Translations under genes and position numbers: made by a program
The notes under the pieces: generated by a model
The model's input: the letters and a program-made list of their open reading frames with translations, nothing else
Database searches by the model: none
Told to the model about the DNA's origin: nothing
Assembly (NCBI GenBank): GCA_044870155.1
Contig: JBIOYN010000289.1
Coordinates: forward strand, 1 to 52,004
Direction: 5' to 3'
Length of the DNA stretch: 52,004 bases
Source of the DNA: Acidimicrobiia bacterium
GTDB taxonomy: Bacteria; Actinomycetota; Acidimicrobiia; IMCC26256; BP-133
Part shown: positions 5,800 through 52,004 of the stretch, piece by piece
Position numbering within the stretch: position 1 is the first letter of the stretch
How the letters are laid out: the number at the start of each line of letters is the position of its first letter

Positions 5800-5889
5800 C
5801 CCCAAGGGTGACCATGGGCTGAGACTCCCCATATCGGCGGGGCGGCGCTTCAGGGTCCCCGGGAACCGGTCGACATTCCGGATACGCAG

Positions 5890-32591: not shown

Positions 32592-32717
32592 GCGTTCCCG
32601 GGCTGGGCGGATGCTACCCCGCCGCTCCCGGACGCACCTAGGCCACCAGGGTTCGTCCCCACCCTGCGGGCGAGCAAAACCGTTTGCCCGCCGGCGGGGA
32701 CGGGTAGCGCCCGGTCG

Positions 32718-33188: not shown

Positions 33189-33196
33189 CGGGACCC

Positions 33197-33769
33197 ATGG
33201 CCCGGCCCGCGCATCCCACCTCCAGCCGGGTCCCGCTCCTCCCGCTCGGGACGGTGGTGTGGCTGACGTCGGAGGTCACGTTCTTCGGCTCGCTGTTCGC
33301 CGCCTATTTCACGCTCCGGGCCACCACCCCCGGCCCCTGGCCGCCGGCCGGCGTGGAGCTCGAGACCGCCTTCACCGGAATGGCCACCCTGCTGCTGGTC
33401 GCCTCCAGCGGGACGGTCCAGCTGGCGGTGCGGGCCATCGCCGCCGGGGACCGGGCCCGGTTCCGGCGCTGGCTGGCGCTGACCGCCACCCTGGCCCTGG
33501 TCTTCCTGGCCAACCAGGCCCGGGAGTGGTCGATGGCCGCCTTCGGACCCTCGTCGCATGGCTACGGCTCCGCCTTCTTCGTCATGACCGGCTTCCACGG
33601 CGCCCACGTGACCGGGGGCGTGATCGCCATGGCCGTGCTGCTGGGCCGCTCGGCCAGCGCCGGCTTCGGGGCCGAGGCCACCGACGCCGTCGAGGTCCTC
33701 TCCTACTACTGGCACTTCGTCGACGTGGTGTGGGTCGTGATGTTCGCCACGCTGTTCCTGTTCCCGTGA
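33197..33769 (+). CDS. ctaE: cytochrome c oxidase subunit III
   Basis: 190 aa. Contains FFVMTGFHGAHVTGG ... YYWHFVDVVWVVMF. Its position upstream of qcrCAB is typical of Actinomycetota. Confidence 0.9.
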   Translation: MARPAHPTSSRVPLLPLGTVVWLTSEVTFFGSLFAAYFTLRATTPGPWPPAGVELETAFTGMATLLLVASSGTVQLAVRAIAAGDRARFRRWLALTATLALVFLANQAREWSMAAFGPSSHGYGSAFFVMTGFHGAHVTGGVIAMAVLLGRSASAGFGAEATDAVEVLSYYWHFVDVVWVVMFATLFLFP

Positions 33770-35357: not shown

Positions 35358-35361
35358 GCCG

Positions 35362-36765: not shown

Positions 36766-38996
36766 GCCTCCGAGAACTTCCAGCCGGTCGCCAGCAGCTC
36801 CCCCATGGCCTCGCTCGGGACGGGACGGGCGAAGAGGTAGCCCTGACCGAAGTCGCAGTTGAGGCGGCGGAGCTCCGCCAGCTGCTCCGTGGTCTCGATA
36901 CCCTCCGCCACCGTCCGGAGGTCGAGTGTGTCCGCCAGCCGGATGATGGCGTGCGCCAGGGCGGCATCCTCGGGACCGCCGGCGAGGGTGCCGACGAACG
37001 CCTTGTCGATCTTGAGCACGTCGACGGGGAACCGTCGCAGATAGCTGAGCGACGAGTATCCGGTTCCGAAGTCGTCGATCGCCAGGCGAATCCCCAGCTG
37101 TTTGAGGATGTGCAGCTGCTCCACCACCCGGCCCGGCTCCTCCATGAGCGCACTCTCGGTGATCTCGAGGACGAGACGCCTCGGGTCCAGTCCCGAGCTG
37201 GACAGGGCAGCTTCGACGTGTCGGCGAAGATCGGGGTCCTCCAGCTGGCGGGCGGAGAGGTTGACGCTCAGGTGGGGCGCGGGTGAGAGCCCGTGCTCGC
37301 GCTGCCACTTGACGAGCTGGCTGCACGTTTCGTCCAGGACCCAGCGTCCTATCGCCGTGATGGCACCGGTCTCCTCGGCGACGGGGATGAAGGCGGCCGG
37401 GGAGACCAGGCCGTGCCCGGGCCGGTTCCAGCGAACCAGTGCCTCCATTCCGGTCAGTCCCCCGTCGGCGAGGCGGATCACCGGCTGGTAGTAGAGGACG
37501 AACTCGCCGGCCGCCAGCGCCCGGCTGAGGTCCGCTTCCAGCTCCAGGCGTTCCAGGGCGGCGGTGTGCATGGCGCCTTCGAAGACGGCCTGACCGCCCT
37601 TCCCCTGGCGTTTGGCGATGTACATGGCCAGGTCGGCGTCGCGCAGCAGCTCCTCGGCGGCCCGTCCGTGGCTGCCGGTGGCGATGCCGATGCTGGCCCG
37701 GGCCAGAATCTCCCGGCCCCCGACGGCGAAGGGCACGGCCAGCTCCCGACCCAGGCGCTCGGCGATCCCCGTCGCCACCTCCGCGCCCGTGTCCTCCAGG
37801 AGCACAGCGAACTCGTCGCCTCCGATGCGGGCGATGGTGTCGGCAGGTCGGATGGAACCTCGCAGGCGCTCGGCCACGGCCACCAGCAGCTTGTCTCCCG
37901 CGGAGTGGCCGAGGCTGTCGTTCACCCTCTTGAATCCGTCGAGGTCGAGGAACAGCACCGTCATGGGAGAAGCGCTGCGCGCGCTCCGGTCCAGGGCATG
38001 GGTCATCCGGTCCAGGAGCAGGGTGCGGTTGGCCAGCCCGGTCAGCGGATCGTGCAGGGCCTGGTTGACGAGCTGGGCCTCCAGGCGCTTGCGCTCCGAG
38101 ATGTCGTGGACGAAGGCGCTGAAGGCGTAGGTCGATCCCACCTGGGTCGCCCACACGGAGAGCTCCACCGGAAACTCCCGCTCGTCGCGGTCGAGGGCGC
38201 ACAGCTCCAGCCGCTGGCCGAGGATGGCCGTCTTCCGGGTGTCGAGAAATCGCCGGAGTCCGCGGCGGTGCGATGAGCGGAACCTGACGGGGATGATCAG
38301 CTCGGCCACCGGCTTTCCCAGGGCCTCCTCCCGGGACCAGCCGAAGGCGGTCTCGGCCTGCCGGTTCCACTCCGTGACCAGACCGGCGTCGTCCATCCCG
38401 ATGAAGGCGTCCCCCGCCGTCTCGATGACCGCCCTCAGCCGTTCCTCGCTGCCGCGCAGGGCGTCCTCCGCCCGCCTCCGCTCCACCACCCGGCTCAGCT
38501 GGGTGCCCAGGTGGGTGGCCAGCTCGAGGAGCGGTTCGTCGGGCTCGAGCCGTTCGAGGGTGAAGAACTCCAGGACGGCGACGACCTCGTTTCCGAGGAG
38601 GACGGGGAACCCCAGGGCGGCCCTGATCCCTGCCTGACGGGCTGCCTCGATGCGGGGGAAGTTGCCGTCGGCGGTGACGTCGGGCACCCACGCCGGCTCC
38701 CCCGACGCCGCCACCCGCCCGGGGAGACCCTCGCCCACCGCCATCGCCGTCTCGTCGGTCGCTTCCCGGAAGCCGCGGAGGCGGTCGTCGTCCGCCAGGT
38801 GCCAGAGCGGTGCTGGCAGCAGCATCCCGTCGCCGGCCGGGAAGTAGACGTGCCCGACGGCCCACCCGGTGTAGGCGCACACGTGGTCGAGCGTTCGCTG
38901 GAGCGCCTCCTCCACCGTCCCGGCCTCGTTGGCGGCCACTGCGATGGCGTTGAGGAGCTGCAGAAAGGCCTGTTCCCGGCGTACGGGCTTCGACAT
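36723..38996 (-). CDS. GAF-PAS-GGDEF-EAL signalling protein
   Basis: N-terminal GAF (GWAVGHVYF...GLPGRVAASGEPAWV) and PAS (IETAGDAFIGMDDAGLVTEWNRQAE). Intact RIGGDEF with I-site RPAD. EAL-domain motifs MEALVRW, NLSARQL, EITES, DDFGTGYSSL, KIDKAF, EGIE, QGY. Confidence 0.9.
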   Translation of the reverse strand: MSKPVRREQAFLQLLNAIAVAANEAGTVEEALQRTLDHVCAYTGWAVGHVYFPAGDGMLLPAPLWHLADDDRLRGFREATDETAMAVGEGLPGRVAASGEPAWVPDVTADGNFPRIEAARQAGIRAALGFPVLLGNEVVAVLEFFTLERLEPDEPLLELATHLGTQLSRVVERRRAEDALRGSEERLRAVIETAGDAFIGMDDAGLVTEWNRQAETAFGWSREEALGKPVAELIIPVRFRSSHRRGLRRFLDTRKTAILGQRLELCALDRDEREFPVELSVWATQVGSTYAFSAFVHDISERKRLEAQLVNQALHDPLTGLANRTLLLDRMTHALDRSARSASPMTVLFLDLDGFKRVNDSLGHSAGDKLLVAVAERLRGSIRPADTIARIGGDEFAVLLEDTGAEVATGIAERLGRELAVPFAVGGREILARASIGIATGSHGRAAEELLRDADLAMYIAKRQGKGGQAVFEGAMHTAALERLELEADLSRALAAGEFVLYYQPVIRLADGGLTGMEALVRWNRPGHGLVSPAAFIPVAEETGAITAIGRWVLDETCSQLVKWQREHGLSPAPHLSVNLSARQLEDPDLRRHVEAALSSSGLDPRRLVLEITESALMEEPGRVVEQLHILKQLGIRLAIDDFGTGYSSLSYLRRFPVDVLKIDKAFVGTLAGGPEDAALAHAIIRLADTLDLRTVAEGIETTEQLAELRRLNCDFGQGYLFARPVPSEAMGELLATGWKFSEAQAAGPASTRSSTP

Positions 38997-39046
38997 CAGG
39001 CGCCTCCACCGGAGACGAGGCCGGCGATTGCGATGCTACCCATGAA

Positions 39047-39509: not shown

Positions 39510-41135
39510 TCACCCTCCGTCCTGGGGGGCGTGGCGGGCGTCGAAGGCGGGGCGCTCGGAGCGGATGGGCGGGAGCTCGACGAAGTTGAGGGGGGGCGGG
39601 GGCGAGGTGGTGGCCCACTCCAGGGAGTAGCCGCCCCAGGGGTCGGCGCCGGCCGGCGCGCCCCGGCGGCGGGACCGGGCCACGTTCACCAGGAAGAGCA
39701 CGATGGCGAGGACGGACAGGACGTGGCCCAGGCTGGAGAACAGGTTCAGGTCCTCGAAGCCCTGGCCCCTCGGATAGTCGGCGATGCGCCGGGGCATCCC
39801 CCGCAGGCCGAGCAGGTGCTGGGGGAAGAAGGTGAGGTTGAACCCGGCGAACATGAGCCAGAACTGGGCCTTGCCCAACCCTTCGGACAGCCGGTGGCCG
39901 GTGAACTTCGGGTACCAGAAGAACAGGCCGGCGAAGAGGCCGAACAGGGCGGAGCCGAAGAGCACGTAGTGCATGTGGGCGACCACGAAGTACGTGTCGT
40001 GGACGTGGACGTCGAAGGGGACGGCGGCCAGCATCGGCCCGGTCAGGCCGCCGACCAGGAACACGACGAGGAAGCCGGTGGCGTAGAGCATGGGGGTGTC
40101 GAAGCGCAGGCGTCCGCCCCACATGGTGGCGACCCAGCCGAAGATCTTCACCCCGGTGGGGACGGCGATGAGCATGGTCGTCCCGGCGAAGAACGGGTTG
40201 TTGACGGCGAAGGTGGCGAACATGTGGTGGCCCCAGGTCGTCACCGAGTAGGCGCCGATGGCGAGGGTGCCGAGCACGAAGGCCTTGTAGCCGAAGAGGG
40301 GCTTGCGGGAGAAGACGGGGATGACCTCGGTGACCACGCCGAAGTAGGGCAGGGCCACGATGTAGACCTCGGGATGGCCGAAGAACCAGAACAGGTGCTG
40401 CCACAGGATGGGCATGGGCTCGCCGGCGCGGGCCTCGAAGAAGTGGGTCCCGAGGCGCCGGTCGGTGAAGAGCATGGCCAGGGCGCCGGTCACCACCGGG
40501 AAGGCGAGCAGGATGAGCAGGCTCACCACCACCATGTTCCAGGTGAAGATGGGCATGCGGAACAGGGTCATGCCCGGCGCCCGCAGTCCGATCACGGTGG
40601 TGACCAGGTTGACGGCGGTGAGCACGCTGGCCACCCCCGTGAGCATGAGGCCGGTGATCCACAGGTCGCCGCCCACGCCGGCGGAGTAGACGCTGTTGGA
40701 CTCGGGGGCGTAAGCCGTCCAGCCGAAGTCGGCGGCGCCGCCGGCGGTGAGGAACCCGGAGAGCATCACCACACCGCCGCCGACGAAGAGCCAGTAGGAC
40801 AGGGCGTTGAGGCGGGGGAAGGCCATGTCGGGGGCGCCCACCTGGAGGGGCACCAGGTAGTTGGCCAGGCCGGCGGCCATGGGCACGGCGAAGAGGAACA
40901 TCATGATGCTGCCGTGCATCGTGAAGAACTCGTTGTAGCGCTGGGCGGAGAGGACCTGCGTCCCGGGCTCGGCCAGCTCGGCCCGCATGAAGCTGGCCAG
41001 GATGCCGCCGGCCAGGAAGAAGCCGAAGGCGGTGACCATGTAGAGGATGCCGATCCGCTTGTGGTCGGCGGTGGAGAACCACTCCACGAGCGGTGCTGGG
41101 CGCGCTTCGACCTCGGCAACACCCGCGATTGCCAT
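39510..41135 (-). CDS. ctaD: cytochrome c oxidase subunit I
   Basis: 541 aa. Canonical heme-copper oxidase subunit I sequence (WFFGHPEVYI, HHMF, VVAHMHYVLFG). Confidence 0.95.
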   Translation of the reverse strand: MAIAGVAEVEARPAPLVEWFSTADHKRIGILYMVTAFGFFLAGGILASFMRAELAEPGTQVLSAQRYNEFFTMHGSIMMFLFAVPMAAGLANYLVPLQVGAPDMAFPRLNALSYWLFVGGGVVMLSGFLTAGGAADFGWTAYAPESNSVYSAGVGGDLWITGLMLTGVASVLTAVNLVTTVIGLRAPGMTLFRMPIFTWNMVVVSLLILLAFPVVTGALAMLFTDRRLGTHFFEARAGEPMPILWQHLFWFFGHPEVYIVALPYFGVVTEVIPVFSRKPLFGYKAFVLGTLAIGAYSVTTWGHHMFATFAVNNPFFAGTTMLIAVPTGVKIFGWVATMWGGRLRFDTPMLYATGFLVVFLVGGLTGPMLAAVPFDVHVHDTYFVVAHMHYVLFGSALFGLFAGLFFWYPKFTGHRLSEGLGKAQFWLMFAGFNLTFFPQHLLGLRGMPRRIADYPRGQGFEDLNLFSSLGHVLSVLAIVLFLVNVARSRRRGAPAGADPWGGYSLEWATTSPPPPLNFVELPPIRSERPAFDARHAPQDGG

Positions 41136-41199: not shown

Positions 41200-41430
41200 T
41201 CAGCGGCCGGCCGGCTCCAACGGGGACTCGAGGCTGGCGAAGGCGTCGACCACCTCGCCCAGCAGGTGGCGGCGCAAGCGGGCGAACAGCAGCGCCTGCT
41301 CGTCCGGTGAGGTGGCGGCCAGCAGTCTTCCCAGATCGCTGGTCTCGGGGATGGAGAGCTCCACCTCGGATTCCCCCGAGCTCCAGCCGTACAGCCTGAC
41401 CGTCACCTCAACCGGCGGTGTAACCCCCAC
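41200..41430 (-). CDS. hypothetical 76-aa protein downstream of the APH-fold kinase
   Basis: High GC3. GTG start without a clear RBS. No recognisable motif. Confidence 0.35.
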   Translation of the reverse strand: MGVTPPVEVTVRLYGWSSGESEVELSIPETSDLGRLLAATSPDEQALLFARLRRHLLGEVVDAFASLESPLEPAGR

Positions 41431-41505: not shown

Positions 41506-42528
41506 TCACCCGGGGGGCACCGGGAGTTCCCCCGACATCCACTCCTCGCACTGTTCCAGCCACGCCGGGGCGAAGCTCGGATCGGCCACCGGCTTCACCA
41601 CCAGCTTGTAGTAGAGGATCTCGAGGAAGGTGCGGGCCAGGTAGGCCGGGAGCAGCTCCACCCCGCGGCCGGCGGTGCCGTACCCGGCGAGGAAGGCCTG
41701 GTTCCACGGCGCGATGCGCTCGAAGGAGCCCGTGCGCACCCACGACATGGTCAGGCACTGGCCAAGGAAGTGGGCCAGGTCCCGGGCCGGGGGGGCGAGG
41801 GCATGACGGTCGAAGTCGATGACCGTCGTCCGCCGGCTGCCGACGTAGATGTTCTTGGGCTGGTAGTCGCCGTGGGTGATGACCAGGGAAGAGCCACCGG
41901 CGACCTCCAGGGCGGAGGCGGCGGCCTCGGCCACCGCCGAGACGCGCCCGGCCAGGTTGGGATGGGCGTCGGCCAGGGCGGAGGCGTAGCTCGTGAGCTT
42001 GTCCGTCTCGAAGCGGGACGGCAGCGGCCCGGTCGCCGACCCGGGGGCGGCGGCGTGGAGCTTGGCCAGCCAACGACCGGCGGCGCGGACCCGGGAGATG
42101 CCCCCTTCGGGGGCGGGAAGGTGGTCGTAGAGCGGATGCCCGCCGGCCCGGCCCTGGAGGAGGACCTTGGTCTCCGGGATCCAGGCGATCGGCTCGGTGA
42201 TGCACAGCGGATGGTCGTCGGAGAAGCCCCGGGCCCACAGGTGGCGCATGAGCTCGAACGTGCCCGCCCCGCCACCCCGGTAGTAGGCCTTGCCGATGAC
42301 GATCTTGAGCACGGACGTCGTGCTTCCGGTGTCCTCGTAGCTCACCCGGTAGCTGACCACCGGGCGGTGGCGCGACGCCTGGAGGACCCGGCCGTCGCAG
42401 CCGGTGAGTCGCAACCCCTCGCCGGCTACGGCCGCCAGGACCTCGGTGACGTCGCCGGCCTCCACCGGGGCGCCGTCCCCCAGCCGATCGGGCCCGCGTG
42501 ACGCAGATTTGTTGACCGCCATCCCCAT
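41506..42528 (-). CDS. APH/CotS-fold phosphotransferase, catalytic motifs intact (K0)
   Basis: 340 aa from ATG at 42528 (or 42522). Beta3 Lys in VLKIV. Brenner motif THGDYQPKNIYV (HxDxxxxN) and metal-binding VIDFD. The upstream 99 codons of the listed ORF run into the divergent gene and are rejected. Confidence 0.8.
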   Translation of the reverse strand: MGMAVNKSASRGPDRLGDGAPVEAGDVTEVLAAVAGEGLRLTGCDGRVLQASRHRPVVSYRVSYEDTGSTTSVLKIVIGKAYYRGGGAGTFELMRHLWARGFSDDHPLCITEPIAWIPETKVLLQGRAGGHPLYDHLPAPEGGISRVRAAGRWLAKLHAAAPGSATGPLPSRFETDKLTSYASALADAHPNLAGRVSAVAEAAASALEVAGGSSLVITHGDYQPKNIYVGSRRTTVIDFDRHALAPPARDLAHFLGQCLTMSWVRTGSFERIAPWNQAFLAGYGTAGRGVELLPAYLARTFLEILYYKLVVKPVADPSFAPAWLEQCEEWMSGELPVPPG

Positions 42529-42623: not shown

Positions 42624-42641
42624 TTTGTCGGGATTTGTCGG
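42624..42641. promoter_or_regulatory. direct repeat TTTGTCGG-GA-TTTGTCGG (10-bp phasing) in the divergent K0/sulfotransferase intergenic region
   Basis: Read directly. It lies in a 133-nt spacer of lower GC than the flanks. Confidence 0.25.
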
Positions 42642-42661
42642 AAAAGCGGCAGGAGTGGGCG

Positions 42662-43270
42662 GTGGCCGAAGAGAATGTCTCCGTGGGGACGCAGCCGACG
42701 ATCGGGGATGAGATCGCGGTGGTCGCCGGGCTGCCGCGCTGTGGCACCTCGATGATGATGCGCATGCTGGAGGCGGGCGGCCTCCCCGTCCTGGTGGACG
42801 GCGTGCGCCGGCCCGACGAGGACAACCCCCGCGGCTACTACGAGTTCGAGCGGGTCAAGCAGCTCAAGGTGGACAAAGCCTGGCTGCCCGAGGCCCGGGG
42901 CCGGGTGGTGAAGATGGTCTCCGCGCTGCTGCCCGAGTTGCCGGGGGGCCACCACTACCGGGTCGTGTTCATGGAACGGGACATGGCCGAGATGCTGGCG
43001 TCCCAGCAGGCCATGCTGGCCCGCCAGGGTGAAGCCCCTGACGACCGGCCGGTGGAGCAACAGGTGGCCGCCTTCTCGGGCCACGTCGCCTCGCTCTTCG
43101 CCTGGCTCGACCGCCAGCCCAACTTCGCCGTGCTCCGGGTCAGCTACAACGAGATGCTGGACGACCCCCGGAGCCAGATCGACCGGGTGAACGGGTTCCT
43201 GGGGGGGACGCTCGACACCGCCGCCATGGTCGCCGTCGTCGACCACGCCCTCTACCGGCAGCGGGCATGA
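42662..43270 (+). CDS. PAPS-dependent sulfotransferase family protein
   Basis: 5'-PSB loop GLPRCGTSMMMRML and a 3'-PB-like FMERDMAEMLAS. I chose GTG at 42662 because GGAG lies 6 nt upstream; the listed start at 42635 is a TTG without an RBS. The stop overlaps the next start (ATGA). Confidence 0.8.
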   Translation: MAEENVSVGTQPTIGDEIAVVAGLPRCGTSMMMRMLEAGGLPVLVDGVRRPDEDNPRGYYEFERVKQLKVDKAWLPEARGRVVKMVSALLPELPGGHHYRVVFMERDMAEMLASQQAMLARQGEAPDDRPVEQQVAAFSGHVASLFAWLDRQPNFAVLRVSYNEMLDDPRSQIDRVNGFLGGTLDTAAMVAVVDHALYRQRA

Positions 43271-44343
43271 CGGGCGGCGCCGGCGGGCCTCCGCTCCCCC
43301 GGCGCCGGGACCGGGCCGTCCTGGCCGTCGATGGCGTGGCCCGGGTCTGGGACCTGGGGCGCTGGGAGGACTGGCGCCGCACGCCCAAGGGCTCCACCAA
43401 CACGTCGTACTTCGTCACCACCGACCGGGATCGTTTCGTGGTGCGGGTCTCCAACCCCCGCAAGACCGAGGCGGGCATGGACCAGGAGGTGGCGCTGCTC
43501 GAGCATCTGCGGGCCCGGGGCTACCCGGCGCCGGCCGTCGTCCCCACGCGGACGGGCGAGCCCTGGGCGCTCGTCGACGGCGCCCTGTGCCTGGTGACCA
43601 AGCGGATCCCCGGGGCCTTCGGCGACCTGGCCGATCCCTGGCACCTGGCCGAGTCGGCCCGGGCCCTGGCCCGCTTCCACCGGGAGGGCCGTGACCTGCC
43701 CGAGGGGGCCCGGCCGGCGCTGGGCTCGGAGATGGGGCTCCTGGCCGGGGGGCATGGACTCGTCCAGCGGGCGGGCGAGCTCGTCGCCAAGCTCACCGGG
43801 GTCGAGAGCCGGGATCGCTTCGCCCGGGCGTGGGAGGTGATCGAGCCCCGCTTCGCCGCCGCCGGCCCCTTGCTCTCGGCCGACGGCGAGCTGCCCCGCA
43901 TGGTCACCCACGGCTCGCTCGGCGTCTCCGCCGTGCTGTTCGAGGGGACCCGGCTCACCGGCGTCCTCGACTACGAGCGGGCCGCCCACGAGGTTCGGGC
44001 CCTCGACGTCGCCTACACCCTGCGGGCCCTCACCCGGCGTCCCAAGGAGGACACCGGGGCCTTCGACCTCCCACGTCTCCGCACGTTCATGGTGGCTTAC
44101 CAGAATGAGGAGCCCCTCGCCCCCGGTGAAGCCGAGCGGCTGGCCCAGGTCATGCGGGCTCAGCGCCTGCTCAAGGTGGCGGGCAAGGCGGGCAACCTCG
44201 TGGCCAAGCACACCGTCGTGGCCCAGGAGGAGAAGGACGCCCTGAAGCTGATCGAGACCCTCGAGCTCGAGGTGCCCAGGCTGGCCTGGCTCGAGGATCA
44301 CGAAGCCGAGCTCCTCGACGCCTGCGCCGGCCACGTCGTCTGA
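43267..44343 (+). CDS. APH/homoserine-kinase-II-fold protein with degenerate catalytic loop (P1: HGS, beta3 Arg)
   Basis: The fold is recognisable (LEHLRARGYPAP, VLDYERA, RALDVAYTL). HxDxxxxN is replaced by THGSLGVSA and the beta3 Lys by Arg (FVVRVS). Confidence 0.8.
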   Translation: MTGGAGGPPLPRRRDRAVLAVDGVARVWDLGRWEDWRRTPKGSTNTSYFVTTDRDRFVVRVSNPRKTEAGMDQEVALLEHLRARGYPAPAVVPTRTGEPWALVDGALCLVTKRIPGAFGDLADPWHLAESARALARFHREGRDLPEGARPALGSEMGLLAGGHGLVQRAGELVAKLTGVESRDRFARAWEVIEPRFAAAGPLLSADGELPRMVTHGSLGVSAVLFEGTRLTGVLDYERAAHEVRALDVAYTLRALTRRPKEDTGAFDLPRLRTFMVAYQNEEPLAPGEAERLAQVMRAQRLLKVAGKAGNLVAKHTVVAQEEKDALKLIETLELEVPRLAWLEDHEAELLDACAGHVV

Positions 44344-44347
44344 CCCT

Positions 44348-44384
44348 GCGTTCCTGCCGGGCGACGGGTGCCCGTCAGGAACGC
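44348..44384. terminator. 37-nt hairpin between convergent genes (copy A of a repeated element)
   Basis: GCGTTCCTGCCGGGC-gacgggt-GCCCGTCAGGAACGC: a 15-bp stem with one mismatch. It sits 4 nt after the P1 stop and 12 nt after the sulfatase-like stop. The same arms recur at 51068-51104. Confidence 0.55.
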
Positions 44385-44396
44385 CGGACCGGCAGG

Positions 44397-46166
44397 TCAG
44401 GCGAGGTAGCCGAGCTTGCGGAGCTGGGCTTCGGTCTCGGGATCGAGCTCGACGAGGGCGCCCGGGGCCTGGAACGAGGCCGTGCGCTCGGCCCAGGCGT
44501 CGAGGCGACGCTCGAGGGCGGCAGCGAGGTCGGGTTCGGCGTCGACGAGGTTCTCGGACTCGGCGGGGTCGGCCACGTGGCGGTAGAGCTCACGTTCCCG
44601 GGCCACGTACTGGCCGGCGCGGACCATGGCCAGCACCTCTTCCCGCTGCCACTTCCTCGAGCTGTCGTGGCGGTGCACGAGACGCGTCTGGGTGGGGTCG
44701 ATGCGCACGGGGCGACCCATGACCACGACGGTGACGGCGCCGCCGCCGGCGTCGACCACGGACTCCGCGGGGCCTTCGAGCTTGGACTCGCCGCCGGGCT
44801 TGCGCCACATGACGCTGCGGGCGCGCCGCCCGCCTCCGCTCGGGCCCGGCGGGTCCAGGATGACGTTGATGCGGTCGCCGGGCACCAGCTCGGCCAGGGG
44901 GAAGGGGCCCTTGTCCAGGCCGACGAGGTCGGTGGTGGCATCGACGGTGAAGTCGAAGCCCAGGACGGTGACGGCCCCGTCCGATGGGTCGACGCGCTCC
45001 ACCAGCCCCAGGAGCTTGTCCGGCCCGGGGATGCCGATGGTCACCTTGGTGGGGAGAAAACCGCCGCCCACCGCCTGTCCTTTGATCTCCAGGGGGGTGC
45101 CCGGAGTCAGGTCGGACAGGCGGGCGGGCGGGGCCTTCGAGACGTGGAACGTCTCGATGAAGTGGTGCTCGGCGGTGGTGACCGACCGGCTGTAGCGCAC
45201 CCGCTTGAGCAGTTCAGAGAACGCCACCTCCCCGTTGGCGGCCGGGCCGGCACCCGCGCCCAACCAGGGCAGCAGGCTGCAGCCGGGGACGTCGGGCACG
45301 GGCACGCCCGCCACCTCCAGGAGTGTGGGCAGCAGATCGATGTGTGACACCGGCGGCGCCGGAGTGTTGCCGGCGCCCACGCCGTCGGACCGGCGGACGA
45401 CGAGCGGCACCCACACCAGCTGGCGGTACAGGCTCTGGCCGTGGCTCAGCATCACACCGTGCTCGTTGAGCTCCTCACCGTGGTCGGCGGTGAGGACGAC
45501 CCAGGTGTCCTCCCCACGTCCCGCCGCCTCCAGGAACGCCAGCAGGCGGCCGATGTGGGCGTCGGCCCGGCGGACGCCGGCGGCGTAGTAGCTGAGGAGG
45601 GTCTCGGGCCCGGCGTCGACCACGGCGGCATCGACACCCCGCTCGACCAGCGGGCGGGTGGGGAAGAGCTCGGCGGGCAGCGGGCTGTGCACGTCCATCA
45701 GGTGCACGTAGGCGGCCCAGGGGCCGTCCCCGGCCTCGCCCAGCCAGGCTTCGAAGTCGTCGACCACGGCGGCGCCGTCGGTGGTGGTCCGGAACTCGAC
45801 ATGGCCGAAGCCGGCGGTGATCCCGAACTCCGGCTTCAGGTAGGCATTGCCGGCCACGAAGGCGGCGGTGGCGAAGCCGGCCCCGCCCAGGCAGCCGGCC
45901 AGGGTGGGCAGGTCGGGATGGAGAGCGGTGAGCTTGGTGCCCTCACCCCCCGGGCGGGGCCCGCCCATCACGTGCTGGCTGGGATAGAGCCCGGTCATGA
46001 TCGACGCCACCGACGGGTGGGTCCACGACGCCTGGCTGACGGCGTTGGCGAAGCGCACACCCCCGGCCGCCAGGCGGTCCATGTGGGGGGTGCCCCGATC
46101 GGTGCCGGCGTAACAGCCCAGGTGGTCGGCCCGCAGGGCGTCGACACAGATGATCAGGAAGTTCAC
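44397..46166 (-). CDS. alkaline-phosphatase-superfamily 'sulfatase-like' hydrolase/transferase with Thr at the nucleophile position and a C-terminal beta-rich extension
   Basis: Metal and catalytic motifs ICVDALRADHLG, SWTHPSVASIMTG and LTADHGEELNEHG. The C/S-x-P-x-R signature reads T-H-P-S-V. About 230 extra C-terminal residues carry repeated V..G....V/D patterns. The GTG start overlaps the upstream stop (GTGA). Confidence 0.85.
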   Translation of the reverse strand: MNFLIICVDALRADHLGCYAGTDRGTPHMDRLAAGGVRFANAVSQASWTHPSVASIMTGLYPSQHVMGGPRPGGEGTKLTALHPDLPTLAGCLGGAGFATAAFVAGNAYLKPEFGITAGFGHVEFRTTTDGAAVVDDFEAWLGEAGDGPWAAYVHLMDVHSPLPAELFPTRPLVERGVDAAVVDAGPETLLSYYAAGVRRADAHIGRLLAFLEAAGRGEDTWVVLTADHGEELNEHGVMLSHGQSLYRQLVWVPLVVRRSDGVGAGNTPAPPVSHIDLLPTLLEVAGVPVPDVPGCSLLPWLGAGAGPAANGEVAFSELLKRVRYSRSVTTAEHHFIETFHVSKAPPARLSDLTPGTPLEIKGQAVGGGFLPTKVTIGIPGPDKLLGLVERVDPSDGAVTVLGFDFTVDATTDLVGLDKGPFPLAELVPGDRINVILDPPGPSGGGRRARSVMWRKPGGESKLEGPAESVVDAGGGAVTVVVMGRPVRIDPTQTRLVHRHDSSRKWQREEVLAMVRAGQYVARERELYRHVADPAESENLVDAEPDLAAALERRLDAWAERTASFQAPGALVELDPETEAQLRKLGYLA

Positions 46167-47203
46167 GAGCCTCCTCCCGATCGCTCCACGGCGGCCAGCA
46201 GCTCATCGCCCTGGCCCAGGGATCGGACCCGGGCCAGCTCCAGGGTGATCTTGCGCAGGTCGTTGGCCGACAAGGGGTCGCCGGCCAGGAGCCGGGCGTA
46301 GCGGCCCAGCGCCCGCTTGAGCCGCTTGGCCAGCAGCAGCAGGGGGATGGCCTCCAGCTCGGCCGGCGCCAGGGGGGAGACGTCCTGGTAGGCGTCCACG
46401 AAACGGGCGGCCACGGCCCGGTCGAGGTGCACCTTGTAGTCGGGCGACGCCGGGTCGCCGTAGACCTTGGCGAAGTCGTGGACGGCGACGGCCACGTCCA
46501 GCGCCCGGGCCTCGACGTGGGCGCTGTCGAAGTCGAGGACGACCAGGAGCCGGTCCCCGTCGAACAGGGCGCTCCCCCGCCGGCAGCCGCCGTGGATGGT
46601 GGTGAGGGGGAGCGAGCGGTACAGGTCCTCCAGCCGGCGCCGGACGGCCCTGCCCTCGGCCAGGGCGAAGCGCAGCGGGGCGGCCAGTCCGTCGGGGACG
46701 TTGGCCAGGAACCGCTCCTCGGCGGGGACAGCGGCCAGCCGCTCGGCCAGGGCCACGGGCACGAGCGCGGCGTCGGGGGTGGGGACGGAGGCCGAGAAGC
46801 CCTCGACCAGCCCGTGGTAGCGGGCCAGCGCCGCCGCCACCGCCTCCGCCTGGCCGGGAACCCCGGCGGAGGCGGGCTGCCCGGCCACGAAGCGGGCCAT
46901 CCGCCACAGCCAGCCCTCGACGAGGGCGCAGGGATCGCCATCCACCGTGGGGACGTACTCGGGGGCCGGGAACCCCCGGGCCCGCAGGTGGGCCACCAGC
47001 TCGTGCTCGAAGCGGACGGCCTCGGGCGTCTTGGCCCGGTAGGAGCGCCGGAGCACGAAGGACCCTCGCGTCGTGGTCAGGCGCCAGTGCTGGCTCTTGC
47101 CCAGCGGCAGGGCCTCGACGTCCTGCCACCCGCCGGCGTCGAAGGTGCGCTCCAGCGCCGCACGGGGCAGGCCGGCCCCCGGGGTGAGGTCGAGCTCAGG
47201 CAT
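46163..47203 (-). CDS. APH/homoserine-kinase-II-fold protein with degenerate catalytic loop (P2: HGG, beta3 Arg)
   Basis: 346 aa from ATG at 47203. Paralogue of P1 (VAHLRARGFPAP; VLDFDSA; RALDVAVAV). The catalytic loop reads TIHGGCRRGSALF and beta3 reads FVLRRS. Confidence 0.8.
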   Translation of the reverse strand: MPELDLTPGAGLPRAALERTFDAGGWQDVEALPLGKSQHWRLTTTRGSFVLRRSYRAKTPEAVRFEHELVAHLRARGFPAPEYVPTVDGDPCALVEGWLWRMARFVAGQPASAGVPGQAEAVAAALARYHGLVEGFSASVPTPDAALVPVALAERLAAVPAEERFLANVPDGLAAPLRFALAEGRAVRRRLEDLYRSLPLTTIHGGCRRGSALFDGDRLLVVLDFDSAHVEARALDVAVAVHDFAKVYGDPASPDYKVHLDRAVAARFVDAYQDVSPLAPAELEAIPLLLLAKRLKRALGRYARLLAGDPLSANDLRKITLELARVRSLGQGDELLAAVERSGGGS

Positions 47204-48254
47204 CGGCGGGCAGCCGGCCCTCGATGAGCGCCGAGAAGTCGGCCCGGTAGGTCTGCACCGCCCGGTCGTCCTCGGGGCTGTCGCCATTCTTCAGCTTGCG
47301 GTTCATGGAGTGGAACACGAAGCGGGCCCAGTGGAAGCGGAGGTTGGCCAACCAGGCGGCGGCGTCGGGCACCGCCGCCCGGTAGGCGTCGAGGAAGGCG
47401 TCAGTGGCGGCCTCCACCTCCTCAGCGCGGCGGCCGTCGCCCGTCAGCTGGCGCCGGAGCCGGTGCAGGAACTCGGCCGTGTCGCGGGCGGGGTCGGACG
47501 GCCGGGAGCGGTCGAGGTCGATCACCGTCGTCGCCCTGTCGTGCCCGGCTTCGGCGCCCAGGAACACGTGGATGGGGCGGTACTGGCCGTGACTCTGGAC
47601 GGCCAGCCCGTCGACGGTGTCGAGGGCCAGGGCCTCGAGCTGTTCGATCATGCGCAGGGCGGGCGGGACGCGCTCGGGTCGCTCGGCCGCCACCTTGGCC
47701 AGGCGCCGGGTGAGAGACAGGATCTCGGTGGAGACCAGCATCGAGTGGGGTTTCCCGATCCGCAGCGGGGTGGAGTGGAGCCGCCCCAGCCAGGTGGCCG
47801 CCTCCCGGACGGCGGTGAGGCGGGCGGCGGGATCGTCGCCGCCCAGCACGTCGGCCACCGATGGCCCCCGCGCCTCGGCGCACACCAGCAGGTCGAGGTC
47901 ACCCATCCAGGCCAGGGGCTCCACCACCTGGTAGGCGGCACCGGGCCCGAAGCCGCCCTCCTCCCGCAGGCGGACGAGCTTGTCGTGGATGGCCCGCCCT
48001 TCGGTGCCGGGCGGGAAGAACTTGGCGAACACGGCCCGGCCCCCGTTGCGGCGCACTTCCACCGTGGCCGCCCCGGTGGAGTCGAGCTGGATGACGCGGA
48101 CGCCCCAGTCAGCCTGGTGGCCGTTTCCGTTCCCGGAGGGGCCGCCGTTGGCCACCTCCACCAGCGGCCGGAAGTGGGCCTCCAGGAACTCCGTTTCCGA
48201 GGCGGCGGCCACCCGCCGCCCCAGCTCGGCCTTCACGTCCTTGGTGATGCTCAT
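47196..48254 (-). CDS. APH/CotS-fold protein with degenerate catalytic loop (P3: HGQ)
   Basis: 352 aa from ATG at 48254, with AAGGAG 5 nt upstream. Paralogue of K0 (VIDLD, ARDTAEFL). The catalytic loop reads SHGQYRPIHVFL and the beta3 Lys is retained (VFAKFF). Overlaps P2 by 8 nt. Confidence 0.8.
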   Translation of the reverse strand: MSITKDVKAELGRRVAAASETEFLEAHFRPLVEVANGGPSGNGNGHQADWGVRVIQLDSTGAATVEVRRNGGRAVFAKFFPPGTEGRAIHDKLVRLREEGGFGPGAAYQVVEPLAWMGDLDLLVCAEARGPSVADVLGGDDPAARLTAVREAATWLGRLHSTPLRIGKPHSMLVSTEILSLTRRLAKVAAERPERVPPALRMIEQLEALALDTVDGLAVQSHGQYRPIHVFLGAEAGHDRATTVIDLDRSRPSDPARDTAEFLHRLRRQLTGDGRRAEEVEAATDAFLDAYRAAVPDAAAWLANLRFHWARFVFHSMNRKLKNGDSPEDDRAVQTYRADFSALIEGRLPADA

Positions 48255-50070
48255 CGGTCTCCTTTGGATCGGCAAGGGCGTCACCGCGCGACAGGGCGAC
48301 CAGCTCGGCGTAGCTGCCGCCCAGCGCACACAGCTCCTCGTGGCTGCCCCGTTCCACCACCCGCCCGTCCTCCAGGTAGGCGATGAGGTCGGCCCGGCGC
48401 ACGGTGGACAGCCGGTGGGCGATGACGATGGTCGTCCGGCCCTCCATGAGGCGCTCCACGGCGTCGAGGACGACGCGCTCGGAGCGGATGTCGAGCCCGG
48501 AGGTGGGCTCGTCGAGGATGAGGACGGGCGACTGGCGCACCAGGGCCCGGGCGATGGCCAGGCGCTGGCGCTGCCCGCCCGAGAGCGTCTCGCCCCGCTC
48601 CTCGACCAGGGTGTCGTAGCCCAGGGGCAGGGCGGAGACGAAGTCGTGGGCGTTGGCCGCCCGGGCGGCGGCCTCGATCTCGGCCCGGGTGGCGTCGGGC
48701 CGCCCGTAGGCGATGTTCTCGGCCACCGTCGCCCGCACCAGCACCGACTCCTGGGGCACCACCGCCACCTGGGCCTGGAGGCTCTCCAGGGTGAAGCTGC
48801 GGATGTCGGCCCCGTCGATGAGGACCGCCCCCGAGTCGGGGTCGTACAGCCGGGGCACCAGGCCCGCCAGCGTCGTCTTGCCCGCCCCGGTGGCGCCCAC
48901 CAGGGCCAGCACCTGGCCGGCGGGAACTTCGAGTTCGACTTCGTGGAGGACGGGCCGGCCGGGCACGTAGGAGAACGTCACGCCCGAGAAGCGGACGGTG
49001 CCGCTCAGGCGGGGGGCGGGCCGGGCGCCGGGCAGGTCGGTGACGGCGAGCGGCGTGGCCAGGATCTCGGCGATGCGCTCGGCCCGCACGCTGGTGCGAC
49101 TGGCCTTGGCCGCCAGGCGGGACAAGGCCCGGGTGGGTCCGTAGAAGTCGCGCAGGTAGGAGGTGAACACCAGCAGCTGGCCCAGCTCCAGGCGCCCGGC
49201 GCGCACCTCGTGGGCCCCCAGAGCGAGGAGGGCGGCCAGGCCCAGCGCCGGCACCACCCCGAGCCAGGACGAGAACGCCGACTCGGTGCGGGACAGGGCC
49301 AGGTTGGCCTCCAGCACCTCGCCGCCGGCCGACTCGAACCGCTCGGTCTCATGCTTCTCCCGGCCGAACACCTTGACCAGGCGCATGGAGGACAGGACCT
49401 CGGAGGTCAGCGACGTCATGTCGCCTTCCAGGTTGCGGGCCCGGACCTCGGCGGCCTTGATGCGGCGGCGGAAGCGGGTGTTGGTGACGGCCATGAGCGG
49501 GGTCATGACCAGCAGCACCAGCGACAGGCGCCAGTCGAGGGTGAAGGTGATGACCACCATGCCGATGCCGAGCAGGCCGGAGGACACGGCCTCGAGGAGG
49601 TTGTCGGTGACCAGCGCCTGGACGGGCTCGGCGTCGCGGGTCACCCGGGTCAGCAGCTCGCCGGTCTGGGCCCGGTCGTGGAAAGCGAGCGACAGGCGCT
49701 GGAGGTGCTGGTAGAGGGCGACGCGGATCCGGAAGGCGACCTTCTGGCCCACGATCTGCATGAGGTAGCTGCGGATGAAGTCGACGGCGGCTTCGAGGGC
49801 GGCGATGGCGATGACGGCCGCCACCACCACCAGCACGAGGAATTCGAAGCTGGCGTCGGTCCGGGGCTTGCCCAGCACCTCGTCGACCAGGAAGGCGAGG
49901 GGCCAGGGCTTGGCCAGCCGGAAGGCGGTGCTGGACAGCACGAGCACCAGGGCCAGCACCAGCGTGGGCAGGTGGGGCCGGGCGAAGGGGCCGAAGACCC
50001 GGAACGCCTGGCGCAGCCCGAACCGGGCGGAGGGCCGCTCCCCCGCGGGCCGGGAGTCGTTCCCGCTCAT
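48109..50070 (-). CDS. ABC exporter, fused transmembrane and ATP-binding domains (MsbA-type half-transporter)
   Basis: 653 aa from ATG at 50070, which forms an ATGA overlap with the upstream stop. Six TM helices. Walker A GATGAGKTT, signature LSGGQRQR, Walker B VLILDEPTS, H-loop IAHRL. No in-frame stop occurs until 48109, so about 48 codons overlap P3. Confidence 0.9.
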   Translation of the reverse strand: MSGNDSRPAGERPSARFGLRQAFRVFGPFARPHLPTLVLALVLVLSSTAFRLAKPWPLAFLVDEVLGKPRTDASFEFLVLVVVAAVIAIAALEAAVDFIRSYLMQIVGQKVAFRIRVALYQHLQRLSLAFHDRAQTGELLTRVTRDAEPVQALVTDNLLEAVSSGLLGIGMVVITFTLDWRLSLVLLVMTPLMAVTNTRFRRRIKAAEVRARNLEGDMTSLTSEVLSSMRLVKVFGREKHETERFESAGGEVLEANLALSRTESAFSSWLGVVPALGLAALLALGAHEVRAGRLELGQLLVFTSYLRDFYGPTRALSRLAAKASRTSVRAERIAEILATPLAVTDLPGARPAPRLSGTVRFSGVTFSYVPGRPVLHEVELEVPAGQVLALVGATGAGKTTLAGLVPRLYDPDSGAVLIDGADIRSFTLESLQAQVAVVPQESVLVRATVAENIAYGRPDATRAEIEAAARAANAHDFVSALPLGYDTLVEERGETLSGGQRQRLAIARALVRQSPVLILDEPTSGLDIRSERVVLDAVERLMEGRTTIVIAHRLSTVRRADLIAYLEDGRVVERGSHEELCALGGSYAELVALSRGDALADPKETDEHHQGREGRAGAAGGRRLGNGVPGGPLPAAGGGGQRRPLRERKRPPG

Positions 50071-52004
50071 GCCGGTGCCACCCTGTCCTGCTCGGGCCGG
50101 CGGTGGACGGGCCGGACGGCGCCGGCCGGCACGGTGCGCAGGTCGATCTCGGCCGGCCGGGAACGGTCCCCCACCCCGAGGCGGAACCCGAACGAGGGCT
50201 GCCACGCCGCCACCCGCAGCACCAGGACGTGTCCGGCGGGGCGGGAAGGCGGGGTCTCCCAGACGAGCGGCTGACCCGGGGGCAGGTCGACCCACACCTC
50301 CGCCGCCCCGGCGGCGAACCCCCGCCGGCGGCCGTCGTGCACGGTGGTGACGGTGGCCCGCCCCTCCCGCAGCAGCACCAGGTAGTCGGGTGAGAGGCCG
50401 AGTTCCACCCGGAAGCGCTCGGTGGCCTCGGCCAGGTCGTAGGCCACGTCCAGGTGGTCGGCGTCGGGGCCGAGCCGCACGCGCTTGGTCGACCCCAGGA
50501 GCGGCGAGCCGGCCTCGACGTTGCGCAGCTCCGCCTCCACCGCTCCATCGCCCAGGAGGCGGGTGGCCGCCACCTCCCAGCGCTCGTTCTCGTGACCCAC
50601 GTCGGCCAGGGCGCCGGGGTGGTTGGCCGGGACCTCCATGTAGCGGTTGACGTCCTCCTGCCAGTTCCAGTCGTCCGCCGGGTTGCCCACCACCAGGGCG
50701 CCGGCCGACAGGTCGTAGAGGGCCACCAGACGGGCGCCGAAGCGGGGCGAGAGGACGGCGAAGAGCCGGTCGTTGGCCAGCACCACCTCGACCTCGCCGT
50801 CGTCGTCGAGATCGGCGCTCCACACCCGGGGCCCGCCGTTGCCCTGACGGGCGCCGCATGACGCCGGGAACCGGGCGGCGGCCACGGTGTGGAGGGCGGC
50901 CCGGGCGTGGGAGGCGGCGGCCCGGGCCCAGGGCGCAGGCTCGTCGGGGCTCGCCCCCAGCCCGTGCCAGGCCGTCTCGTAGGCGGCGGCCATGAGCTGC
51001 GTCCAGGCCAGGTCCCACAGCCGGGAGGCGGCCCGGGCCCCGGCGCCGTTGCGGGACGGGTGTTCCGGCGTTCCTGCCGGGCACCTGTCGCCCGTCAGGA
51101 ACGCCGGTGGAATGCCGGCCGGGGTGGCGGGGCCGGGGGGGCCGGCCGACAGGGTCGCTTCCAGGCGTTCCAGGTGGGCCCGGTAGGGGGCGTAGAGCGC
51201 CGACGCCCACCAGCGCTGGTAGTCGTCGCCGGCGCCGCCGGCGGCCAGCTCGTAGAACGTGCCGGGCTCCACCGCCCGGGTGTCGGACGGCGGATGGGCG
51301 GCCAGCCATGGGCCCACCAGCACGGTGTCCACCTTGTCGGTGGAGGCCAGCCAGCGCAACAGGCCCTCGTAGGCGTCGACCCCGGACCGGCGCCACGCCC
51401 CGCTGGTCCACGGACCCACCGCCGCCGTCTTTTCCAGGTCGTCGGCGTAGAGCGCCAGGGTCCCCCGACCGGCGGCACGCGCCGCGCCGAGGGTGTCGAA
51501 CAGGAGCCGCCACGCCGCCATGTCCCTGGGCGGCACGGCGTAGCGCAGGTCTCCGGAGATGGGCACAGCCACCAGGCCGCCGGCCCCGGCCACCCGCCAC
51601 GGTCGCAGATGGGCGCCGTCCCGCTGCCGCCCCGGACCGTCCCCGTTGGCGCCGGCGTCGCCGGGGACCGGAGGGGCGGGGAGCAGGGGCGGCGGGCCGG
51701 CGGCGGAGGCGGGCAGCGGCGAACGGCCCGGCGCCGTCTCCCGGTCGAACCCGGCCCGGTGCGCCGCCGGGTAGGCCAGCCGGTCGTCGAGGAGCACGTA
51801 GCGGTACCCACCGTTGGCCAGCCCCGGATCGCCCACCACCGGCGCCAGGGCGGCCGTGTCCCACACCCGCTCCGGCACCCAGAAGCCGGACACCTCCGGC
51901 GCCGCCACCCCCAGGTGGCGCGTCAGCAGGTCGAGCTCCTCGGCCACCTGTCGCCGGTTGTGCTCGGCGCTGAAGAGCGGCATGACGGGCTGGGACCAGG
52001 CGCT
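50067..52004 (-). CDS. GH57-like alpha-glucan-active enzyme (alpha-amylase/4-alpha-glucanotransferase-type, with DUF1925/1926-like C-terminal half), 5'-truncated by the window edge
   Basis: Regions resembling the GH57 conserved regions: GFWVPERVW (nucleophile Glu), LYADDLEKT (acid/base Asp) and AAYETAWHG. The reading frame stays open upstream of the listed Met to position 52004 (SAWSQPV-MPLF), so the N-terminus lies outside the window. Confidence 0.7.
   Translation of the reverse strand, partial: SAWSQPVMPLFSAEHNRRQVAEELDLLTRHLGVAAPEVSGFWVPERVWDTAALAPVVGDPGLANGGYRYVLLDDRLAYPAAHRAGFDRETAPGRSPLPASAAGPPPLLPAPPVPGDAGANGDGPGRQRDGAHLRPWRVAGAGGLVAVPISGDLRYAVPPRDMAAWRLLFDTLGAARAAGRGTLALYADDLEKTAAVGPWTSGAWRRSGVDAYEGLLRWLASTDKVDTVLVGPWLAAHPPSDTRAVEPGTFYELAAGGAGDDYQRWWASALYAPYRAHLERLEATLSAGPPGPATPAGIPPAFLTGDRCPAGTPEHPSRNGAGARAASRLWDLAWTQLMAAAYETAWHGLGASPDEPAPWARAAASHARAALHTVAAARFPASCGARQGNGGPRVWSADLDDDGEVEVVLANDRLFAVLSPRFGARLVALYDLSAGALVVGNPADDWNWQEDVNRYMEVPANHPGALADVGHENERWEVAATRLLGDGAVEAELRNVEAGSPLLGSTKRVRLGPDADHLDVAYDLAEATERFRVELGLSPDYLVLLREGRATVTTVHDGRRRGFAAGAAEVWVDLPPGQPLVWETPPSRPAGHVLVLRVAAWQPSFGFRLGVGDRSRPAEIDLRTVPAGAVRPVHRRPEQDRVAPA
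51068..51104. repeat. copy B of the 37-nt hairpin element, located inside the GH57-like coding sequence
   Basis: GCGTTCCTGCCGGGC-acctgtc-GCCCGTCAGGAACGC. Both 15-nt arms, plus the following CGG, are identical to copy A at 44348-44387. The loop is 6 of 7 the reverse complement of the copy A loop. Confidence 0.8.

Follow-up and report, generated by a model that had tools for sequence, protein, structure and literature searches.

To our knowledge, inactive members of the APH/CAK kinase fold have been described only among spore-coat proteins and among cyclases of peptides that are made by the ribosome and modified after translation (RiPPs). The bacterial spore kinases of Bacillales and Clostridiales (CotS, YtaA/CotI, YutH and BSKC1-7) are a CAK family related to homoserine kinase II; their genes are clustered with glycosyltransferase genes, and several of their classes are predicted to have turned independently into pseudokinases (Scheeff et al. 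2010, PMC2860764). RosX, TvaE and ThoE are kinase-fold non-kinases working beside an active kinase (PMC12291118). Studies of bacterial pseudokinases have mostly dealt with Hanks-type Ser/Thr kinases, and a 2025 review of the subject is confined to such families and does not treat those of the APH/CAK fold (PMC12599244). Here we describe an operon in a 52,004-nucleotide stretch of DNA from an Acidimicrobiia bacterium (contig JBIOYN010000289.1 of assembly GCA_044870155.1, hereafter the window; G+C 72%, nearest relatives Acidimicrobiia metagenome-assembled genomes), in which one canonical kinase, K0, is accompanied by three paralogues, P1, P2 and P3, with Ser, Gly and Gln, respectively, in place of the catalytic Asp. 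We conclude that P1, P2 and P3 are three ancient kinase-fold (CAK/APH) families under purifying selection, with rebuilt and fixed catalytic loops.

The four kinase-like genes of the window are:

41506-42528, minus strand: K0, canonical CAK/APH-fold kinase (Pfam APH; THGDYQPKN...VIDFD), with its start codon at 42528 or 42522
43267-44343, plus strand: P1, CAK-fold paralogue (Pfam APH; HGSLGVSA, LDYE, beta3 VVRVS)
46163-47203, minus strand: P2, CAK-fold paralogue (Pfam APH; HGGCRRGS, LDFDS, beta3 VLRRS)
47196-48254, minus strand: P3, CAK-fold paralogue of K0 (Pfam APH; HGQYRPIH, IDLDRS, beta3 Lys kept in VFAK)

A sequence-only reading of this DNA had assigned the set to positions 43267-48254; this interval holds the three paralogues, K0 falls outside it, and the limits of P2 and P3 are corrected here to those listed. 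All four proteins score above the gathering threshold of Pfam PF01636 (APH, 23.2 bits), at 54.4 bits for K0, 78.9 for P1, 78.5 for P2 and 35.4 for P3. K0, which reads ITHGDYQPKN...VIDFD and has VIGK at beta3, is the sole paralogue with the full catalytic loop HxDxxxxN (the Brenner motif), which is broken in P1 (VTHGSLGVSA...VLDYE), P2 (TIHGGCRRGS...VLDFD) and P3 (QSHGQYRPIH...VIDLD). The metal-binding Asp of the DxD/DxE motif, equivalent to that of DFG, is present in all four (IDFD in K0, then LDYE, LDFD and IDLD). The strings FVVRVS, FVLRRS, LEHLRARGYPAP and VAHLRARGFPAP were likewise all found in the translations.

Alignment places the substitutions on the catalytic positions themselves. In HMMER alignments to homoserine kinase II (2ppq, vIHaDlfqdNvfF...liDf), the Ser of P1 and the Gly of P2 stand on the catalytic Asp, with Ala (P1) and Ser (P2) on the position of the Asn, and in a four-family alignment P3 has Gln on the Asp position and His on the Asn position. 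No alternative conserved Asp lies between the His and DxD in the family alignments of P1, P2 or P3, so that a proper alignment places no different Asp in the catalytic loop, and misalignment is effectively excluded. The exchange of HGD for HGS, HGG and HGQ, with the Asn lost and the metal-binding Asp kept, had been read by eye and is borne out by the translations and by both sets of alignments. The proposed grouping into two paralogue pairs, K0/P3 and P1/P2, also holds in BLASTP comparisons (K0 versus P3, 27% identity, E = 4e-14; P1 versus P2, 32% identity, E = 2.5e-24), K0 and P1 matching at merely E = 0.002. The replacement of the beta3 Lys by Arg in P1 and P2 is real (FVVRVS and FVLRRS), but it is uninformative on activity, because Arg often stands in for Lys in this kinase group (choline kinase has Arg, R146, at beta3; PMC2860764) and homoserine kinase II (2ppq) has Thr at this position.

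The rebuilt loops are fixed throughout each family, as established by anchoring on the DxD motif and by alignment-column counts. T-H-G-S is found in 18/18 P1 orthologues (51-99% identity), with R60 and D235 invariant. Among 120 relatives of P2, down to 38% identity, the His, the Gly at the Asp position, the Arg-Arg pair, the Ser at the Asn position and D-x-D are each present in 120/120, and the beta3 Arg in 116/117. For P3 (n=120), Gln, Arg-Pro and the His at the Asn position each occur in 120/120 relatives, D-x-D in 119/119 and the beta3 Lys in 119/120. The resulting family motifs are H-G-S-x-G for P1, H-[GA]-G-[CA]-R-R-G-S for P2 and H-G-Q-[YF]-R-P-I-H for P3. No orthologue with HGD was found in these sets, and the same holds across more than 40 syntenic loci; the loop Asp and Asn are thus gone orthologue-wide from three families, a catalytic-residue loss that is one of the marks by which pseudokinases are defined. 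Further to that, when 1.84 billion representative proteins were searched exhaustively with P1 (HMMER), 27 matched with E < 1e-30, all P1-like save two or three, one of which, P0283, is P2-like. Their readable loops carry Ser (Gly in P0283) and never Asp, the P1-like ones reading [HQ]-[GA]-S-x-G. P2-type loops (HGGCRRGS and H[GA]SCR..S) come next in rank, and canonical HGD....N loops appear only from E ~2e-26 outward, in much more distant relatives.

Selection was estimated as the ratio of nonsynonymous to synonymous substitution rates (dN/dS, Nei-Gojobori) against two orthologous loci, L002, on an Acidimicrobiia contig, and L004. The values below are distorted in absolute terms by an extreme bias in G+C content at third codon positions (GC3) and are meaningful only relative to neighbouring genes:

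K0: 0.29 against L002, 0.24 against L004
P1: 0.34 against L002, 0.40 against L004
P2: 0.28 against L002, 0.25 against L004
P3: 0.27 against L002, 0.24 against L004
ABC exporter of the same operon: 0.18 against L002, 0.21 against L004

Since their dN/dS is similar, P1-P3 are about as constrained as the canonical K0. The kinase-like open reading frames (ORFs) are intact, with GC3 of 0.93-0.94. K0 is 68% identical to its L002 orthologue, and identity to the operon members of Arthrobacter sp. U41 is 45% for K0, 46% for P3 and 42% for P2. The earlier argument against decay, made from intact reading frames, is thereby strengthened: the D-to-S/G/Q substitutions are fixed family-wide and dN/dS is about that of K0, which excludes strain-specific decay.

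Predicted structures agree with the family assignment. AlphaFold2 models of P2 (predicted local distance difference test, pLDDT, 91.7; predicted template modelling score, pTM, 0.90) and P3 (pLDDT 89.7, pTM 0.90) have only APH/CAK kinases as top Foldseek matches in the PDB, with probability 1.00. The structures closest to P2 are those of sugar and small-molecule kinases, the nearest folds being homoserine kinase II, N-acetylhexosamine 1-kinase (TM 0.77), YtaA/CotI (2q83) and amicoumacin kinase, and those to P3 are LxmK (9dk3), corramycin phosphotransferase, PsiK, TvaE (8jsu) and APH(3'). A sequence search of the PDB with P3 gave zero matches, and one with K0 no credible match, the best relevant being spectinomycin phosphotransferase (E = 0.15).

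How do these families compare with the described systems? The best NCBIfam matches of P1 and P2 are homoserine kinase II (HSK2) and then the CotS family. Like P1-P3, the spore kinases have a CAK/APH fold nearest to homoserine kinase II, YtaA (2q83) being among the top folds of P2, and they too comprise several clustered paralogues, some without the Asp but with structural residues kept, and tightly linked to glycosyltransferase genes. They differ in that they belong to the spore coat of endospore formers, whereas the hosts here are non-sporulating Actinomycetota, Acidobacteriota and Chloroflexi, and in that their partners are spore-coat GT4 enzymes rather than GH57/GlgA and an ABC exporter. 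Their pseudokinases are varied and often extremely degraded, in contrast to the rebuilt invariant loop per family and the retained DxD of P1-P3, and fusions to an ABC exporter and to GH57, seen here (below), are not described for them. P1 and P2 therefore resemble the spore kinases in manner of working yet are not members of that family, which is their nearest precedent. LanX, RosX, TvaE and ThoE, as P1-P3, have an APH-like fold without the catalytic Asp and stand beside an active paralogous kinase (LanK or TvaC; PMC12291118), and P3 has TvaE and LxmK among its nearest structures. However, RosX and TvaE are also without the Mg-binding motif and the ATP-binding residues (PMC12291118), whereas P1-P3 keep DxD and the beta3 Lys or Arg; moreover, no precursor, lyase or decarboxylase is found in the present operon and sequence identity is < 20%. 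The closest solved structures and sequences to P1 and P2, homoserine kinase II (2ppq) and NahK (4ocu), have the bilobal small-molecule-kinase architecture and DxD in common with them. P1 and P2 have lost the catalytic Asp and Asn, and are therefore not homoserine or sugar-1 kinases by the canonical mechanism.

The genes surrounding the four kinase-like ORFs, picked as genuine by codon-position G+C (GC3 0.91-0.94), are the following:

42635-43270, plus strand: sulfotransferase of the 3'-phosphoadenosine 5'-phosphosulfate (PAPS) type, divergent from K0 (Pfam Sulfotransfer_3 and Sulfotransfer_1)
44397-46166, minus strand: sulfatase-like hydrolase/transferase of the alkaline-phosphatase superfamily (Pfam Sulfatase, 142.8 bits), last gene of the minus-strand operon
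48109-50070, minus strand: MsbA-like ABC exporter, a half-transporter with a transmembrane and a nucleotide-binding domain (Pfam ABC_membrane and ABC_tran)
50067-52004, minus strand: GH57-family protein, C-terminal two-thirds, first gene of the operon, its N-terminal catalytic domain lying past the window end

Start and stop codons overlap at the sulfotransferase/P1 (ATGA), P3/P2 (ATGCCTGA), P2/sulfatase-like (GTGA, at the P2 stop) and GH57/ABC (ATGA, at the GH57 stop) junctions, and these neighbours are therefore translationally coupled, as the sequence-only reading had maintained. The GH57 protein of the window is 69% identical to the full-length orthologue in L002, which matches Pfam GH57 and the 4-alpha-glucanotransferase 1k1w (E = 3.7e-11). 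The ABC orthologue is closest to MsbA-type models of NCBIfam but scores below their cut-offs. The 3' end of the ABC exporter ORF in the window (48109-48254, minus strand) encodes a low-complexity tail rich in Gly, Arg and Pro and lies for 146 nt inside the P3 coding region, while in L002 the ABC/P3 overlap is only 4 nt; the long tail could be a real variable tail or the product of a frameshift or assembly error near the 3' end.

Starting from the neighbourhoods of Arthrobacter sp. U41 and the Acidimicrobiia contig L002, a P3-profile scan of 185,579 species genomes gave 42 further loci (44 in all), onto which the operon proteins were mapped by tblastn. The hosts are Actinomycetota (Acidimicrobiia, Arthrobacter, Pseudonocardia and others), Acidobacteriota, Chloroflexi and one Verrucomicrobia metagenome-assembled genome. 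The gene order GH57 or GlgA-GH57 - K0 - ABC - (P1-like) - P3 - P2 is found at ~30 Actinomycetota loci. Its version with a GlgA-GH57 fusion is constant in Arthrobacter, Pseudarthrobacter, Pseudonocardia, Modestobacter, Geodermatophilus, Nocardioides and several metagenome-assembled genomes, and GH57 without the GlgA fusion occurs in Sporichthyaceae, Acidimicrobiia and Chloroflexi. The glycosyltransferase part of the fusion passes the NCBIfam glgA model TIGR02095 (448 bits vs a cut-off of 328). In Acidobacteriota the operon consists of GH57, K0, three P3-like paralogues and ABC. Wherever a related locus extends far enough, the ABC exporter is there in synteny. Sulfotransferase and sulfatase-like genes belong to the Acidimicrobiia version only, the sulfotransferase adjoining P1 only in L002 and L004; P1 itself is not lineage-specific, and in Acidimicrobiia it has been relocated beside the sulfotransferase. 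We conclude that P1, P2 and P3 together with K0, GH57/GlgA and the ABC exporter are the core unit of this operon. No description of it was found in the literature on GH57/phosphotransferase/ABC loci, on GT5-GH57 fusions or on bacterial pseudokinases of the APH fold, nor is it described in the passages on GH57 and its fusions of an alpha-glucan review (PMC11046441; 12 of 22 matching places).

The same division is seen in the catalytic loops of 152 kinase-like genes at these loci. Orthologues of K0 carry THGD[FY]QPKN at nearly every Actinomycetota locus, and HGD....N variants are found in Acidobacteriota and Chloroflexi. P1-like genes, which lie between ABC and P3 in ~20 operons other than that of the window, have H[GA]S[YLF]G in 21/21 cases; P2 loops are H[GA]G[AC]RRGS in nearly all loci, and P3 loops HGQ[YF]RPIH in nearly all Actinomycetota loci. 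The Acidobacteriota and Chloroflexi variants combine one canonical with three non-canonical paralogues, the loops of the latter being HGQYRHIH, HGQFTPAN and HGR[YF]HHEH in Acidobacteriota. On the evidence of these 152 genes, the operon combines one canonical kinase with two to four rebuilt paralogues across phyla.

Divergent operons with three P3-like paralogues each, carrying the same HGQYRHIH, HGQFTPAN and HGR[YF]HHEH loops, were seen in Acidobacteriota, Chloroflexi and Actinomycetota metagenome-assembled genomes (L032-L037, L039, L041 and L042). A P3-like protein from Anaerolineae (L040) reads THGDYHASH, with the Asp retained and the Asn replaced by His, and judging from this loop may be an evolutionary intermediate.

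Some distant relatives of P1 are natural fusions. P0262 (1057 aa) and P0284 (898 aa) join ABC_membrane and ABC_tran domains to a P1-like domain (loops IQGSFGRSAL and HASYGTSAL, respectively), and P0283 (1003 aa) joins GH57 to a P2-like domain (HGGCRRDS...LLDFDSAR). The contig that carries P0262 (L045) reads GH57 - ABC::P1 - P3, and the locus is therefore the same operon. By the Rosetta-stone argument, the ABC::P1-like and GH57::P2-like fusions suggest the exporter as the site of action of P1 and the GH57 enzyme as that of P2, and they lend support to the earlier suggestion that the three proteins are scaffolds, substrate binders or partners. Parallels to the ABC::P1-like fusions and the K0/P3 pair are the MviN(MurJ)-pseudokinase fusion of M. 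tuberculosis, STRADalpha-LKB1 and Fam20A-Fam20C, in which an inactive kinase-fold domain is reportedly attached to a transporter or paired with an active paralogous kinase. These are functional analogies only, as the proteins are of Hanks- or Fam20-type folds and not CAK/APH, and no phospho-dependent regulation is evident here.

We suggest, with about an even chance of being right, that P1-P3 are non-phosphorylating adaptor or ligand-binding subunits that link export of an alpha-glucan-derived molecule to its synthesis or remodelling and to its phosphorylation by K0. The GlgA/GH57 enzyme would make or remodel this molecule, and of the subunits only K0 could use the standard Asp-base mechanism to phosphorylate a hydroxyl. 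P1, P2 and P3, their kinase activity presumably lost, would bind a ligand or nucleotide and tie the cytoplasmic enzymes to the exporter in a putative complex, in which P1 would sit on the ABC transporter, P2 would dock to GH57 and P3 would pair with K0. Binding of an anionic, phosphorylated or sulfated intermediate would be in keeping with the cationic Arg-Arg pair in the loop of P2 and with Gln and His in that of P3, and Acidimicrobiia may have added the sulfotransferase and the sulfatase-like enzyme to the system.

Several points weigh against such an adaptor role. A missing Asp base does not prove missing catalysis, and DxD, the beta3 Lys/Arg and the new loops are strictly kept, as would be expected of an active site in use; pure scaffolds usually lose such residues, as RosX and TvaE lost the Mg site (PMC12291118). 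The P0283 fusion is not traceable, no contig on record encoding it, and no fusion of P3 was seen among the relatives, so that the linkage by fusion covers P1 and P2 only. Paralogy is the one pointer to a pairing of K0 with P3, as the GH57 and GlgA domains are to the predicted substrate, and the dN/dS values attest to constraint only in relation to the neighbouring genes.

The same conservation can be read differently. It is possible, if on balance improbable, that P1, P2 and/or P3 are active enzymes with a chemistry needing no Asp general base, for instance phosphoryl transfer to an acceptor that is already anionic (a sugar phosphate, for example, which would become a diphosphate), SelO-like nucleotidyl transfer, or transfer or hydrolysis of phospho- or sulfo-sugars; the four paralogues might then act in sequence on one intermediate. 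The replacement residues Arg-Arg, Ser, Gln and His, each 120/120, show the invariance of true catalytic residues; retention of DxD and of the beta3 Lys/Arg is ~100%, unlike in RosX and TvaE with their lost Mg site; and the fixed loops differ from family to family, as they would if the families catalysed distinct reactions. SelO, SidJ and POMK, too, were once labelled pseudokinases and are reported to have been shown later to be active enzymes. On the other hand, we know of no active CAK-fold enzyme with Gly, Ser or Gln at the Asp position, the Asn holding the second Mg is also lost, the ABC and GH57 fusions suit an adaptor role at least equally, and sequence alone assigns no chemistry. An extension of this possibility, which we consider unlikely, is that the rebuilt families are new classes of enzyme or receptor that perform ATP/Mg-site chemistry on an anionic phospho- or sulfo-sugar while docked to the ABC exporter and GH57, within an unrecognised multi-phylum machine for making, modifying and exporting an alpha-glucan-derived molecule. 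If true, this would make them a bacterial small-molecule counterpart of the 'pseudokinases' later shown to be enzymes.

Very improbable, by comparison with both the adaptor and the enzymatic roles, is that P1-P3 are LanX/TvaE-like proteins of a RiPP pathway (class V lanthipeptide or thioamitide), binding a leader peptide or cyclising beside K0, with the ABC protein exporting the peptide. The structural matches of P3 include LxmK (9dk3) and TvaE (8jsu), K0 has a weak NCBIfam match to LxmK (E = 1.6e-4), and the operon does encode an ABC exporter. The Foldseek TM-scores are only ~0.58, however, with APH(3') matches nearly equal; the ABC protein is without a peptidase domain; and DxD is kept, whereas the RiPP-type kinase-fold cyclases lost the Mg-binding motif. 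At none of the 44 loci does the operon contain a gene for a lyase (LanY/HopA1), cyclase, decarboxylase or YcaO protein, the constant partner being GH57/GlgA and no peptide-modifying enzyme. Because P3 structurally resembles LxmK and TvaE, a precursor gene was looked for, and one small ORF came into consideration:

41200-41430, minus strand: conserved 76-aa ORF (MGVTPPVEVTVRLYGW...), directly downstream of K0

It is 75% identical to L002:7872-8105, for which precomputed Pfam annotation lists no family, and it occurs in the window and L002 only, being absent from the other related loci, and is without a Cys/Ser/Thr-rich core. A role in a RiPP pathway was therefore rejected, the ORF not being conserved beyond two loci and lyase and cyclase genes being absent. 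Least credible of all is recent pseudogenisation or an alignment artefact, with the true Asp elsewhere or HGD in orthologues, since the substitutions are fixed in all orthologues across phyla with no other conserved loop Asp, the 2ppq HMMER and four-family alignments agree on the position, and the ORFs are intact with dN/dS of ~0.25-0.40, like K0 and neighbours.

Other identities were tried and rejected. PADLOC gave no match to anti-phage defence for K0, P1, P2, P3 or GH57, and only generic nucleotide-binding-domain matches for ABC. Homoserine kinase type II (NF003558/TIGR00938) reaches 93.6 bits with P1 and 74.2 with P2 against a cut-off of 271, and the catalytic Asp is replaced; the CotS family (NCBIfam TIGR02906) reaches 35.0 and 33.9 bits, respectively, against 172.7. 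Profile scores for an APH resistance enzyme or a maltokinase are far under the cut-offs.

The finding is therefore of a multi-paralogue module, widespread and uncharacterised, rather than of three odd genes. To the known members of this fold that lack the catalytic Asp it adds a clean and widespread case, in which one canonical kinase is accompanied by two to four paralogues with 100% conserved replacement loop residues, whose genes are tied to those of an ABC exporter and a glycogen-synthase/GH57 enzyme and in some cases fused to them. The module may reveal an unknown route of alpha-glucan modification and export in Actinomycetota, and the names 'phosphotransferase' and 'homoserine kinase type II' that databases give to proteins of the P1-P3 type are mechanistically wrong. 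As the hosts include the cultivable, genetically tractable Arthrobacter, Pseudarthrobacter and Pseudonocardia, the role of a kinase fold after loss of the catalytic Asp becomes directly testable.

The sulfatase-like protein (44397-46166, minus strand) has T49-H-P-S-V where sulfatases have the C/S-x-P-S-R formylglycine motif, and the same is true of L002 and L004. This rules out a formylglycine sulfatase; if Thr is the nucleophile, a phosphodiesterase or phosphotransferase within the alkaline-phosphatase superfamily would be suggested. A long extension at the C terminus of the protein weakly matches DUF5666.

Further genes of the window, the first three with no apparent link to the kinase-like genes, are:

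30522-33275, minus strand: galactose-oxidase/glyoxal-oxidase-like Kelch protein
35107-36765, plus strand: cytochrome b gene near ctaD
36723-39035, minus strand: GAF-PAS-GGDEF-EAL signalling protein
39510-41135, minus strand: ctaD

In L002, a second cluster (1509-7846) flanks K0, at the place that ctaD occupies in the window, where this cluster is not found. It comprises NTP_transf_3, a CDP-glycerol glycerophosphotransferase-like gene, a 486-aa APH protein and a 1017-aa ABC::APH fusion. The APH part of this fusion is of another type, and the protein is a further link of ABC exporters with kinase-fold domains.

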